Source: an uncultured Bacteriovoracaceae bacterium (GTDB taxonomy: Bacteria; Bdellovibrionota; UBA2428). Taken from it: a stretch of 64,000 nt of DNA. Where the stretch lies: contig CAZSSP010000009.1 in the NCBI GenBank assembly GCA_964609695.1, positions 1,522-65,521 on the forward strand. The letters run 5' to 3'. Made by a program: the position numbers and the translations under genes. The notes under the pieces are model-generated. The model was not told the DNA's origin, made no database searches, and was given only the letters and a program-made list of their open reading frames with translations. This document shows, piece by piece, positions 18,394-49,652 of the stretch (position 1 is its first letter; every line of letters starts with the position of its first letter).

Positions 18394-18436
18394 AGCCTAT
18401 AGTTATATCCACTAGCCTAGCCTTTGACAAAGCATT

Positions 18437-18513
18437 TACTGTGCGACGTTAAGAGTGGTCACATAAAAGGGACAGCCTATGGAGAGCCCACCCACTCTTT
18501 AGGTCGCACAGTA
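18437..18513. repeat. 77-nt hairpin (22-position stem, 20 paired) in the glmM upstream gap
   Basis: TACTGTGCGACGTTAAGAGTGG (18437-18458) pairs with CCACTCTTTAGGTCGCACAGTA (18492-18513), with 2 mismatches and a 33-nt loop. No T-run follows on either strand. Confidence 0.8.
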
Positions 18514-18518
18514 GAAAT

Positions 18519-27931: not shown

Positions 27932-29647
27932 TTAATGAGTGGCTGCCATAGCGCGGAAAATATCAAGACAATCACGGCCTGGAGCAACCCTAGGACGACC
28001 TATTGGGTCTGCCTCTTCAGGACGAATAATATGATCTGATTTTTTAGGAGCTCCATCATTGTCCGCTACTTGAACTTTTGGCTTAGAATCAGGAGCACTC
28101 TTTGTTTCAGCGCCCATAGCATCGCCACCGGTTTGAGATTTAGGACCAGCCGATGCAGTTTCTGGATTACGGATTGGAAGCAGCGGAGGAGTATAAGGTC
28201 TTTCAGCTCTAGCTGGAGCAGAAGACGCAAGTTCAGGCAAAGAATGCACACCACCATTTAGTCCACTCGGAATAGTATTAAATTCAGGCATTCTCGGTGC
28301 CTCAAAGTTTGAAGTCACTGGGGCTCTAAAAGAAGTTTGAGCTGGAATTGGAGCGGCCACAACACTGGCTGGCATCCTAGATCCCGCTGCAGTTATAGAA
28401 GTGTGAGGTGAATTTAGCGACGCACTTGATGGAGTCGTACCAAGATCGCTTACGGCCACTGGTGAAACTGCTGAAGCCGAAGAAGATACCGTATTAGAAG
28501 CTGCTGAAGAATTTGGAGAAACAGCTTGCGATGAAGTCGTCACACTCGAAGGGCGACGAAGCGGAGAAGACCGTAAGTTTCGATCGACTAATGTTGCCGC
28601 CAACGCAATTCCACCCACTCCCACAGCCGAATTTACAACACCCGTATCTGGAGGAGCCATGACGGCATTGTCTTGGCTAATTACTGGCGAATTCAATGCG
28701 ATACTTTGCGTAGGAATTGAATTTCCACTTGGTGAATTTAAATCAATTTTTTTATTTCCACCGCTTTCACTTTTAGAAACAGATGCGATTTCAGTGGCAT
28801 CGTCTTTAGAAACTGGTCGACCATTTAAAGCCTCTTCATCGGAACCATCGGAAGCGACAAAAGAGGATCCCTCAGAAGCCGCAGAAGCGTCATCAATTTC
28901 AGAGTTTGATTTAGATCCCTCGGCGACTAATGTACGTCCAGTTTGCGCATCAATTCTGGAGGAGTTAGCTATTCTTAGTAAATCCGCATTAATCTTAGAC
29001 TCGCCAACGATAACTGCCGTCGATAGACCTTTTGATTTTGCAAGATCAACAAATTGTGATTCGGATGGAGAAGGTAATCCCCAAGCCAAAGAGACATTGT
29101 GTTTTATTGAAGCTTTTGTGGCACTATCTCGGTCGGGATTTGCATCAATAATTTTAAACAAATTTTTTGAAAATTCTTCAATTTTAATTCTACCAGAGGA
29201 AAAATTTTCAATTTGCTCTTTAATTTGCTCTTCTTCAATCTTGCTAAACGGGTCTTTATTCACTGGATCCACAATAGTTTTTAAACTTTCCAAAGTGTCG
29301 GGTGAACCCAACAAAAGTCTCCAAATAAAACTATCTGATCTTCGGACATTTGAAATATTAGTAGAAGCTGAACTATTTGAAGCTTTAAAAGCTCGAGCAG
29401 AATCTAAGGCGTAAAGGGATTGAGATGACAAAGCTATAGAGAGGCTTAGAAGCTTTACAGAATTTAGGCAGTTTCGCAAAAATGCGAAATTTCCCATTCC
29501 TAAATTGTGTGTATTCTCAGGCGCCTTATTCATCAATTTCAAGGGTTTAAAACTTTTACGCTTTAAAAAACCCCATCCCCCTACGTGTATTATTGCAGCT
29601 TTCGTTCCAAAATTGAAAAAATAATTTAATTCAATAAAATCATACAC
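27932..29647 (-). CDS. Ser/Pro/Ala-rich secreted hypothetical protein
   Basis: 571-aa ORF. An internal signal-like segment (LLSLSIALSSQSLYA) suggests a later true start. The C-terminal half is low-complexity and S/P/A-rich. A 251-aa antisense ORF is probably a by-product of this composition. Confidence 0.5.
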   Translation of the reverse strand: MYDFIELNYFFNFGTKAAIIHVGGWGFLKRKSFKPLKLMNKAPENTHNLGMGNFAFLRNCLNSVKLLSLSIALSSQSLYALDSARAFKASNSSASTNISNVRRSDSFIWRLLLGSPDTLESLKTIVDPVNKDPFSKIEEEQIKEQIENFSSGRIKIEEFSKNLFKIIDANPDRDSATKASIKHNVSLAWGLPSPSESQFVDLAKSKGLSTAVIVGESKINADLLRIANSSRIDAQTGRTLVAEGSKSNSEIDDASAASEGSSFVASDGSDEEALNGRPVSKDDATEIASVSKSESGGNKKIDLNSPSGNSIPTQSIALNSPVISQDNAVMAPPDTGVVNSAVGVGGIALAATLVDRNLRSSPLRRPSSVTTSSQAVSPNSSAASNTVSSSASAVSPVAVSDLGTTPSSASLNSPHTSITAAGSRMPASVVAAPIPAQTSFRAPVTSNFEAPRMPEFNTIPSGLNGGVHSLPELASSAPARAERPYTPPLLPIRNPETASAGPKSQTGGDAMGAETKSAPDSKPKVQVADNDGAPKKSDHIIRPEEADPIGRPRVAPGRDCLDIFRAMAATH

Positions 29648-29696
29648 TTAATTAATATTAACACTTTCATTATCCAGCACTGTCAAAAAGCCATGT

Positions 29697-29892
29697 TTTG
29701 ATTGTGCGCTAAGAAACGGGCCTGGAAATCTATGACTACCTTTAAATTCAATGACTAGAGCCTCTTGGGGTGAGCGACGGGGCAACGCCCCGAGCTTCAG
29801 GGGTCGCCCAAGCCGCTCTAGTCATTGAATTTAAAGGTAGTCATAAATTTTAGACGTAATAATCCAGGCCCGTTTCTTAGCGCACAATCAAA
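29697..29892. repeat. 196-bp nested palindrome (perfect 30-bp outer and 31-bp inner inverted repeats around a GC-rich hairpin core)
   Basis: Outer arms 29697-29726 and 29863-29892 are exact complements, as are inner arms 29731-29761 and 29815-29845. The core 29762-29814 self-pairs (CTTGGG/CCCAAG, GCGAC/GTCGC, CGGGGC/GCCCCG). The right outer arm contains the stop codon and last 4 codons of the decarboxylase gene. Confidence 0.95.
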
Positions 29893-31301
29893 TTTTGAAG
29901 GGATTGGAGGAGATCGTCGACATGGCGTTTTTCCATAAGTCTTTGGCCTGCCACAAATCTAAGAGTGTAGCGCCCCTCAACTCTTGTATGACTTAAATAA
30001 AATTTTCCAGTGGCATTGAGCGCTTTAATGAACTTTTCATTTTTTTCATCAAGCGCTTCGGGGCTTAATTTTTCATCGTGCCATCTAAAACAAACTAAAT
30101 TTAAAGTGGTGGGACAAACAATTTTCCATGACTGATTTTGAGTGATCAATGTTTTTTCGAAATACTGCGCAAATTGAATATGAGTTCTTATGTGCTCTCG
30201 AATATTTTCAAGTCCCATAGATCGCATCACAAACCAAAGTTTCAAAGCTCTAAAGCGGCGTCCTAAAGCTAATCCCCAATCACGATAGTTCTTCACTTTT
30301 TGAGAACTTTGAGCTTTTAAATATTCAGGCAAAATTTCAAGACTTCTCACTAAAATAGAAGGGTCTTTAACAAAATAAGCAGAGCAATCAAAATGAGTAA
30401 AAAACCATTTATGAGGATTAATCACCATACTGTCCACGGCTTCTACTCCACTTAAATAATGGCGCAATTCCGGAAGTATAAAAGCTGATCCCGCATACGC
30501 AGCATCGACATGAAGCCAAATTTTTTCTTCTTGAGCGATTTGAGCAATTTTAGAAAGATCATCAAAAGCCGTAGTGCTCGTGGTGCCTAATGCCGCCACA
30601 ATGGCTGTAGGCTTCATTCCGTTTCGCTTGTCGTCAGCAATCTGCTTTTTTAAAAGCAAAGTGTTCATCGATAAATCCGACAGAGTGGGAATTTTTATAA
30701 AGTTTTCACGACCAAAGCCCAAAACTTTAGCCGCTTTTTCCACAGAAGAATGGGCCTCTTGAGATGCGTAAATTCTCATAGAGGACTGATCATAAAATCC
30801 TTTATCATTCACACAAAATTCAGAAGCTTTTTCACGTGCACTCAGTAATGCCAACAAAGTGGATGTCGAAGCGGTATCTTGAATCACGCCTGACCAATTT
30901 TTGGGTAAAGACCAGAGATCTCGAAGCCAATCCATCATTCTTTCTTCTAATTCAGTGGCCGCAGGCGAAGTCTCCCAACTCATGCACTGAAGAGACAAAG
31001 CGCTCACTAAAATTTCAGCCAACAAGCTTGGATAACTCGAATTCGATGGAAAAAATGCAAAAAACCCCGGATGCTGCCAATGAGTCACACCAGGAATAAT
31101 CATTTGTTCAAAATCTTTAAAAATTTTTGAAAAGTCTTCGCTCGATTCTGGAGCGTTTTGAGGGAGTTTGTTTAAAAGCGATCCGGCTTCCATCGTGGAT
31201 TTCACAGGATAAGACTCAATGTTCCTGTAATAATCAGCAATCCAATCGACTATCTTGTGTGCCTCTTTTTGAAACTCATCAATATTCATGGGCTCGTTCA
31301 T
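29877..31301 (-). CDS. PLP-dependent aromatic-L-amino-acid/tyrosine decarboxylase family enzyme (group II decarboxylase)
   Basis: 474 aa with HWQHPGFFAFFP, SGVIQDTASTSTL, WLHVDAAYAGSAF and the PLP-lysine motif NPHKW. Confidence 0.85.
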   Translation of the reverse strand: MNEPMNIDEFQKEAHKIVDWIADYYRNIESYPVKSTMEAGSLLNKLPQNAPESSEDFSKIFKDFEQMIIPGVTHWQHPGFFAFFPSNSSYPSLLAEILVSALSLQCMSWETSPAATELEERMMDWLRDLWSLPKNWSGVIQDTASTSTLLALLSAREKASEFCVNDKGFYDQSSMRIYASQEAHSSVEKAAKVLGFGRENFIKIPTLSDLSMNTLLLKKQIADDKRNGMKPTAIVAALGTTSTTAFDDLSKIAQIAQEEKIWLHVDAAYAGSAFILPELRHYLSGVEAVDSMVINPHKWFFTHFDCSAYFVKDPSILVRSLEILPEYLKAQSSQKVKNYRDWGLALGRRFRALKLWFVMRSMGLENIREHIRTHIQFAQYFEKTLITQNQSWKIVCPTTLNLVCFRWHDEKLSPEALDEKNEKFIKALNATGKFYLSHTRVEGRYTLRFVAGQRLMEKRHVDDLLQSLQNLIVR

Positions 31302-31888
31302 TAGTACAAGTTTTCAATTTTATCGCGACCCAATCGACGAGCTTTTTCGACTTCTTTCATTCGACTTTGCATAAGCTTTTCTTCCGATCGTTCTTTGGCT
31401 CTTTCAGCGTTAGCTTGTTCCACTATTTTATAAGAATCTTTAAAAAGTTTATCGGCAATTTTGCTCAAGTGATCGTGAAGCAAAGGGTTGGCACTATCTA
31501 AGGCATCTTTAGATTTTGCTCCCGGTTTTTTTTCAGCGTTAAAAACTTGCTCAAATTTACAAAGCTGACCTTTGATAAGACGATCGACCGGACTTTCCTC
31601 AAAATAAGCAGGCTTTATGTCGAGTAAATGTTGTGAGAGTTCAGAAATAGCAAAAAGATCGGAGACACCCTTGGCATCCGCGCCTCTTTGACTAGCCATT
31701 ATCGTAATACTGCTTTCAAAAAAATCTCTGAAACGCTTGGCTTCCGCAAATGCATTGTCGCAGCCACCAGGAAAAGCCATCGAGGAAAGCGGCTTATAAA
31801 CATTTTCATCAATCTCACTGGCGGAAAAGAGCGGCAGCCCTAACGCTAAGCAACAGAGCAATAATGACTTCAATAGGTGCTTCTTCAT
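31301..31888 (-). CDS. secreted hypothetical protein, translationally coupled to the decarboxylase
   Basis: 195 aa with a signal peptide (LLLCCLALGLPLFSA). Its stop overlaps the decarboxylase ATG by 1 nt (TAATG). Confidence 0.5.
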   Translation of the reverse strand: MKKHLLKSLLLCCLALGLPLFSASEIDENVYKPLSSMAFPGGCDNAFAEAKRFRDFFESSITIMASQRGADAKGVSDLFAISELSQHLLDIKPAYFEESPVDRLIKGQLCKFEQVFNAEKKPGAKSKDALDSANPLLHDHLSKIADKLFKDSYKIVEQANAERAKERSEEKLMQSRMKEVEKARRLGRDKIENLY

Positions 31889-49476: not shown

Positions 49477-49652
49477 GGATTTCGGAGCACCCCATCCTGA
49501 AACAGCATAAGCACATGATTTTATTGAATAAACATTTAAAAAATCATTGTGCGCGATGAAACGGTCCTGGGAGGGGTCAAGCTCCTTTAATGGCGCAGAA
49601 TTCTCGCTTCCTCTCCTAAAGTTCAATGTCTAGAACTCCGAATAGTTATTGA

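Follow-up and report, generated by a model that had tools for sequence, protein, structure and literature searches.

The Correia elements (CREE/NEMIS) of Neisseria are 100-155 bp long, have terminal inverted repeats of ~26 bp and are present in many copies near genes. They form long hairpins in mRNA, their internal sub-types combine different arm variants, and they duplicate TA at the target. To our knowledge no parent insertion sequence (IS) has been named for them. In Coxiella burnetii, the fully palindromic MITEs QMITE1 and QMITE2 reach 1-50 bp into the 3' ends of functional genes and can contribute C-terminal residues as well as a stop codon (PMC5896051). In our study we analysed a palindromic repeat located at 29697-29892 of a 64,000-nucleotide stretch of DNA (the window) from an uncultured Bdellovibrionota-like genus. 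This repeat resembles QMITE1 and QMITE2 in being small, non-coding, dispersed and hairpin-forming and in overlapping a gene 3' end, but its sequence and its host are unrelated to theirs. Moreover, unlike the QMITEs, it is accompanied by a matching autonomous IS in the same genome, and no target duplication was seen. With the Correia elements it shares terminal repeats of ~26 nt, many copies near genes, long hairpins and combined arm variants. In contrast to them it is longer, with a unit of 188 bp, has variable flanking dinucleotides and a parent IS, and contains a nested second palindrome and a GC-rich core. Our literature search on MITEs in Bdellovibrio-like bacteria found nothing relevant. 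The 188-bp element very probably represents a genus-restricted, non-coding, fully palindromic MITE-type element in a family that has not been described before.

The copy at 29697-29892 consists of the 188-bp unit, running from ATTGTG to CACAAT, and a 4-bp palindromic extension (TTTG/CAAA) on each side. The nested palindrome reported by the first-pass annotation is real. Its 30-nt outer arms (29697-29726 and 29863-29892) are 100% complementary, and the inner arms (29726-29769 and 29807-29850), which are 44 nt long and 93% complementary, pair over 31 nt without interruption; the GC-rich centre and the one-sided spacer were found as well. The left terminal inverted repeat ATTGTGCGCTAAGAAACGGGCCTGGA (29701-29726, plus strand) matches the ends of an IS of ~1.28 kb, and its right counterpart (29863-29888, minus strand) carries the codons ATT GTG CGC and the TAA stop of a decarboxylase gene. 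Both inner arms are conserved across copies, the left one being AT-rich, on the plus strand and starting with AAATCTATGACTACCTTTAAATTCAATGACTAGAGC, the right one lying on the minus strand. Between them is the centre of the core hairpin (29770-29806), which is not fully symmetric and shows GGGGC-loop-GCCCC inside GCGA/TCGC. The spacer TAGACGTAATAA of 12-13 nt (29851-29862) bulges out of the hairpin and shows which way round the outer ring lies. A 211-nt stretch folded as RNA reached -135.8 kcal/mol compared to -51.8 +/- 4.5 kcal/mol for shuffled sequences (z = -18.75), with 0 of 200 shuffles as good. The coding capacity of the 188-196-bp unit is limited to a single chance ORF of 45 aa crossing it.

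The first-pass annotation had also noticed no second copy in the window, which is right for full copies but overlooks a decayed half copy at 49546-49570. Here one terminal repeat with 2 mismatches is followed, over ~120 nt, by a remnant of the inner arm. An ORF of 331 aa with an HD-domain-like HDIGK motif is located directly downstream.

Outside the window the repeat is abundant. The genome (2.79 Mb, 90 contigs, 39.4% G+C) contains ~19 full copies of 188-196 bp at unrelated loci, which are 73-86% identical to the copy at 29697-29892, and paired or solo arms occur elsewhere, several of them at contig ends. It had been proposed that a single-copy element conserved with its gene would be an ordinary terminator; our genome search showed that the repeat is not single-copy. 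The terminal inverted repeat comprises 26 nt with the consensus ATTGTGCGC[T/G]AAGAAACGGGCCTGGA, from which other copies deviate by 0-3 mismatches. Of the 19 full copies, 14 have a gap of 162 nt between their terminal repeats and five one of 160-163 nt, and this constant spacing defines the unit as 188 bp. In pairwise comparisons the copies are 82% identical in the median and 95% at most. Therefore, the family is not young, and recent transposition is not supported.

Similar numbers were found in the sister species, the only other member of the genus (JAGNHS01, 'Proteobacteria bacterium Gw_Eff_bin_446'), which has ~22 copies. The 39 other relatives searched, including all 18 other genomes of the order, contained none, and among 185,579 species represented by one genome each, paired repeats occurred in the sister genome only. 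A scan of genome contigs gave single matches in ~30 unrelated high-GC genomes, which we rejected as chance 21-mers. In metagenome contigs the terminal repeat had no match, and a 22-mer of the core matched only two high-GC soil contigs, by chance.

The ends of the repeat led to its putative parent. A variant of the terminal inverted repeat, ATTGTGCGCGAGGAAACGGGCCTGGG, which marks the ends of an IS, is identical to it at 24 of 26 bases. It is present at six positions where contigs break, and at four of these it is followed by an open frame starting MCKGLIAMQSE... with two CxxC pairs. The same arrangement of IS end and transposase ORF exists in the sister species. A Logan contig of 1263 bp contains the IS almost whole, with an ORF of 378 aa and the right-hand repeat, and ends in ...CCCAGGCCCGTTTCCTCGCGCACAATTAAA, from which we derived an IS length of ~1.28 kb. 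Several copies of this IS are present in the same genome as the 188-bp element. The interior of the element has no sequence in common with the IS beyond the terminal repeat. We assign the element to the MITE type because of its dispersed copies and the terminal repeat common to a transposase-bearing IS. Of the features that characterize a MITE, we found a small non-coding unit with terminal inverted repeats, many dispersed copies and ends that match a transposase-encoding IS.

The 378-aa protein has no Pfam domain, and NCBIfam gave only sub-threshold matches, to zinc-binding domains of IS1/IS1595/IS256 and to ISL3. The best scores were 17.1 bits for IS1_IS1595_Zn (cut-off 28) and 14 for transpos_IS1 (cut-off 100). 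The Pfam model DDE_Tnp_IS1 matched only 3 of 23 members (E = 0.13). Alignment of 23 homologues revealed invariant residues D136, D226, E284 and K290, and homologues were detected in 14 of 41 related genomes. An AlphaFold model of the protein (pLDDT 86.2, pTM 0.78) had its best structural match in the ISCth4 transposase (E = 4.1e-4); the RSV/ASV integrase cores and the transposase domain of Metnase were matched as well. Its predicted fold marks the protein as a transposase whose DDE/RNase-H-like core is preceded by an N-terminal zinc finger and a helix-turn-helix. The parent IS thus resembles elements of the IS1/IS1595/IS256 type, as it has a single ORF of ~380 aa with an N-terminal CxxC...CxxC zinc finger, a helix-turn-helix, a DDE core and a basic residue shortly after the E, as well as terminal inverted repeats of ~26-30 bp. 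The closest fold is that of ISCth4, which belongs to the IS256 family. It differs from this type in lacking a Pfam domain and in scoring far below the cut-offs of the NCBIfam IS models. Moreover, the duplications of 8-9 bp that are usual in these families were not seen.

Other non-autonomous units with the same ends are 55 bp (the two repeats only), 211 bp (with the right end of the IS), 440 bp and 550 bp long. The 440-bp (C20:28636-29075) and the 550-bp unit (C23:12397-12946) contain one small ORF each. One of the two ORFs encodes a lipoprotein-like signal peptide with a Cys, the other encodes a small secreted protein, and both units are mini-transposons with passenger genes. The 440-bp unit is common to the genome and the sister species. 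One site is occupied by the full IS in this genome (starts of contigs C13 and C34) and by the 188-bp element in the sister species (C44:3071-3267, L114), with identical boundaries. This pair suggests either that recombination through the repeats common to both exchanged them or that targeting is very specific.

In addition, we identified a second IS family. Its parent, located at C5:44574-45789, has the ends ACTGTGCGACGTTAAGAGTGG and is accompanied by miniatures of its own; the transposase that it encodes shares 50% identity with the first. One of these, 79 bp long and bounded by ACTGTGCGACGTTAAGAGTGG, is located in the window at 18436-18514. At C84:2846-3126 the inner arms and the GC-rich core of the 188-bp element are present without their own terminal repeats, within an element whose ends are those of the second family. 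Either the inner hairpin module can travel with both sets of ends, or one element inserted into the other and has since decayed.

The repeat at 29697-29892 overlaps the end of a gene for a PLP-dependent decarboxylase of the aromatic-amino-acid type (474 aa, 29877-31301, minus strand; PF00282, E = 4.9e-110). The start of this gene overlaps the stop of an ORF of 195 aa without a Pfam family (31301-31888), and the gene downstream of the element, at 27932-29647, encodes a Ser/Pro-rich protein without a family. The last five codons and the stop of the decarboxylase gene (29877-29894) overlap the repeat, and the TAA stop (29877-29879, minus strand) is derived from GCGCTAAG of the terminal repeat. 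The protein ends in ...LQNLIVR. Sequence and gene call confirmed that TTG ATT GTG CGC TAA, the L-I-V-R-stop codons named in the first-pass annotation, is located within the right outer arm. The orthologue in the sister species is 96% identical at the amino acid level, has the tail ...LQDLIVR and ends inside the element at the same place. Therefore, the insertion is older than the split of the two species. In two other genera the orthologues (48-49% identity) have unrelated tails, ...HVTEAWNKIEEISREVLV and ...DIREAWDEILSAAF before the stop.

The best solved relative is the DOPA decarboxylase 7xin (476 aa), and its alignment extends to residue 472 of the 474 residues of the query and residue 469 of the chain, pairing ...vddllqslqnli (query) with ...vqrlwarlqdvi (chain) at the C-terminus. 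As the homology continues up to residue 472, the native helix is retained through LQNLI. The comparison with orthologues and solved homologues hence placed the end of the homology 2 residues before the stop codon. Judged from these alignments, the strictly new residues are Val473 and Arg474 together with the stop, the Leu-Ile codons already lying in the repeat and its 4-bp extension, and roughly 5-7 native C-terminal residues were replaced. The first-pass annotation had listed a MITE-like insertion that supplied a new C-terminus among its explanations, and this one is supported by the ~19 dispersed copies, the ends shared with an IS and a decarboxylase homology that stops 2 residues short.

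We inspected the flanks of all 57 repeat ends and found no consistent target-site duplication. The base before ATTGTG is T at 28, A at 17 and G at 10 of these ends, without a fixed TA, and the 8 nt outside ATTGTG have the weak consensus wwAwTTyn. In several copies the palindrome continues into the flanks in a copy-specific manner, over 13 nt at C8, 6 nt at C13, 5 nt at C36 and C73 and 4 nt at the copy described here. Besides, a C-rich motif (CCCCT and relatives, roughly AATCCCCTCCCGC) is located 7-13 nt outside the repeat at 14 of the 57 ends, compared to 0.8 expected. It also adjoins ends of the full IS, and examples of copies are C7:22757, C13:36040 and C8:29081. We considered that this motif, and with it ~12 codons of the gene, was brought along by the element and rejected this for the decarboxylase copy, where DLLQSLQNLI aligns with the native C-terminal helix. 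Since the C-rich stretch is native coding sequence there, a target preference seems more likely than a weak outer repeat.

Nearly all copies are located at sites common to both species. Among ~20 sites we found a single clean difference in presence, with L072:3833-4020 filled in the sister species and C1:210357 empty in this genome. The extra DNA of 215 bp at L072 comprises 24 nt of flank, the element and 1-3 nt. A deletion at C1:210357 is more likely than a new insertion in the sister species, because flanking DNA is part of the extra segment, only AA is repeated (a microhomology of 2 nt) and the filled copy has already decayed. The search for a further empty site gave none: in the sister species the C36 site has been rearranged around another palindrome, and C2:165442 and C48 lie on contig breaks. 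One copy has shrunk to 55 bp (two repeats only) in this genome compared to the sister species, and another to a single arm.

Comparison of 15 orthologous pairs of copies revealed that the interior of the element changes orientation in place. Eight pairs have the same orientation (86-98% identity), and in four the whole interior is inverted, with identities after flipping of 96-97%, 86% and 79%. In the remaining three, including the copy at 29697-29892, the core differs in orientation relative to the ring that bears the spacer. Thus 7 of the 15 copies differ between the species by a flip of the whole interior, of the core only or of the ring. Within the genome, 3 of 19 copies have a core whose orientation to the spacer is not that of the others. 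In whole flips the degenerate bases of the outer repeat keep their side, as at C2:43290. The break points are therefore inside the repeats, which argues against excision and reinsertion. As the arms are shorter than the usual final word length of assembly, the assembler should resolve the orientation of the flips.

An element that follows genes and folds this stably might be maintained for its RNA. The host could have selected it to terminate transcription, to stabilise mRNA 3' ends or to be cut by RNase III, with its dispersal being secondary, and the first-pass annotation had raised an elaborate bidirectional terminator or RNA-stability element. A gene 3' end lies within 20 nt of 11 of the 19 copies, and two copies, the one described here and C2:43290, overlap it. 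Nevertheless, about as many sides of the copies face gene starts as gene ends, and a terminator scan found nothing in the element. Neither strand has a U-tract behind the hairpin; on that of the gene, CAAAACATGGC follows. Orthologous copies diverge by 3.5% in the terminal repeats, 7.9% in the core and 10.7% in arms and spacer, compared to 21-27% at fourfold-degenerate sites of the flanking genes, which would fit selection for an RNA. However, other intergenic DNA at the same loci differs by only 4.8%, so the element is no better conserved than ordinary intergenic DNA, its ends excepted, and strong purifying selection on the whole element, which we had considered, is weakened. The low divergence of the terminal repeats compared to the 8-11% of the rest hints at a constraint beyond that of a dead transposon. 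Changes in the arms are often mirrored, as would be expected for an RNA stem: among the deviations of the terminal repeats from consensus, 10 occur on both arms as mirror images and 19 on one arm only. Where such a mirrored change is a singleton, confined to one copy, it indicates that the arms are homogenised in place. Selection at the RNA level should also bias wobble-compatible mismatches towards one strand; we looked for this and found no enrichment of G-U-compatible mismatches on the transcribed strand (11 vs 17). Finally, copies were flipped, shrunk to 55 bp or deleted between the two species. We therefore regard a host-selected RNA element as quite unlikely. The hairpin, predicted at -136 kcal/mol, may still have a side effect on the 3' end of the decarboxylase mRNA, possibly as a barrier to 3' exonucleases, as an RNase III target or by influencing read-through to the next gene.

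A structured ncRNA gene or a local inverted duplication of the gene end, both raised in the first-pass annotation, could account for the conserved, GC-rich core hairpin and for a left arm that is an exact inverted copy of the last codons. An Rfam scan of both strands of 29000-30600 gave no match at E <= 1 in the element, its only hit being a chance U6atac match outside, and no promoter-like site was found in or facing the element. The core exists in both orientations relative to its neighbours. Taken together, the missing U-tract, the lack of an Rfam match and the absence of a strand-specific wobble bias leave a dedicated terminator or RNA gene unsupported. The duplication fails since the same arms bound ~19 copies at loci without a decarboxylase; it is the gene end that derives from the repeat, rather than the repeat from the gene end. 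Both explanations are highly improbable. The same holds for a REP/REPIN-type element moved by a RAYT (Y1, IS200-like) transposase via single-strand hairpins, a route that would explain the absence of a target duplication. Like REP/REPIN-RAYT systems, the 188-bp element forms dispersed palindromes near gene ends without target duplications, its body is fully palindromic, and the genome encodes a Y1_Tnp-like protein. However, the Y1 gene (C1:223292-223543) is flanked by its own repeat of ~46 bp, found at >15 loci and without similarity to the element, the arms have no GTAG/CGTC head, and the element is bounded instead by ends that match a DDE-type IS. The Y1_Tnp (RAYT/IS200-like) gene with its inverted flanking repeats (C1:223001-223764 and >15 other loci) is a separate REP/REPIN-like system, whose ~46-bp repeats are dispersed in the genome, often as inverted pairs.

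The evidence favours an IS-related MITE that inserted at the gene end before the species split and was later inverted in place, and we hold this account as a whole with high confidence. The 26-nt terminal inverted repeats would be the recognition ends of the ~1.28-kb IS, whose transposase, as far as the sequences suggest, may have spread the 188-bp element in trans. The copy at the decarboxylase gene entered it at its last codons, before the two known species separated, so that the terminal repeat now encodes the final residues (Leu-Ile-)Val-Arg and contributes the stop codon TAA. Later the interior would have been inverted in place, by recombination or by template switching between the inverted arms, and at 29697-29892 the orientation of the outer ring to the core would thereby have changed relative to the copy of the sister species.

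A further reading, which we consider unlikely, is that of a new family of DDE transposons which make no target duplication, insert at chosen sites, namely C-rich or palindromic motifs beside stop codons, and maintain ~20 hairpins per genome at gene ends that flip at two levels. It is suggested by the IS and the MITE occupying the very same site in the two species. If true, ~20 invertible nested hairpins, flipping as a whole interior or as a core, could alter mRNA 3' ends or the expression of downstream genes.

The 188-bp element leaves the current understanding of bacterial MITEs unchanged. New in our study are the parent IS with its DDE-fold transposase, the pair of IS and MITE at the same site, the second family of an IS with miniatures and the reading of the decarboxylase tail. 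The repeat family is now tied to a parent IS whose transposase fits no curated family and is thus a concrete candidate for transposition assays. Moreover, the frequent in-place flips of the nested palindrome document how short inverted repeats recombine in nature. For the decarboxylase, the account explains an odd gene end: a mobile repeat supplies its C-terminal residues and its stop codon, an arrangement that is stable in two species.
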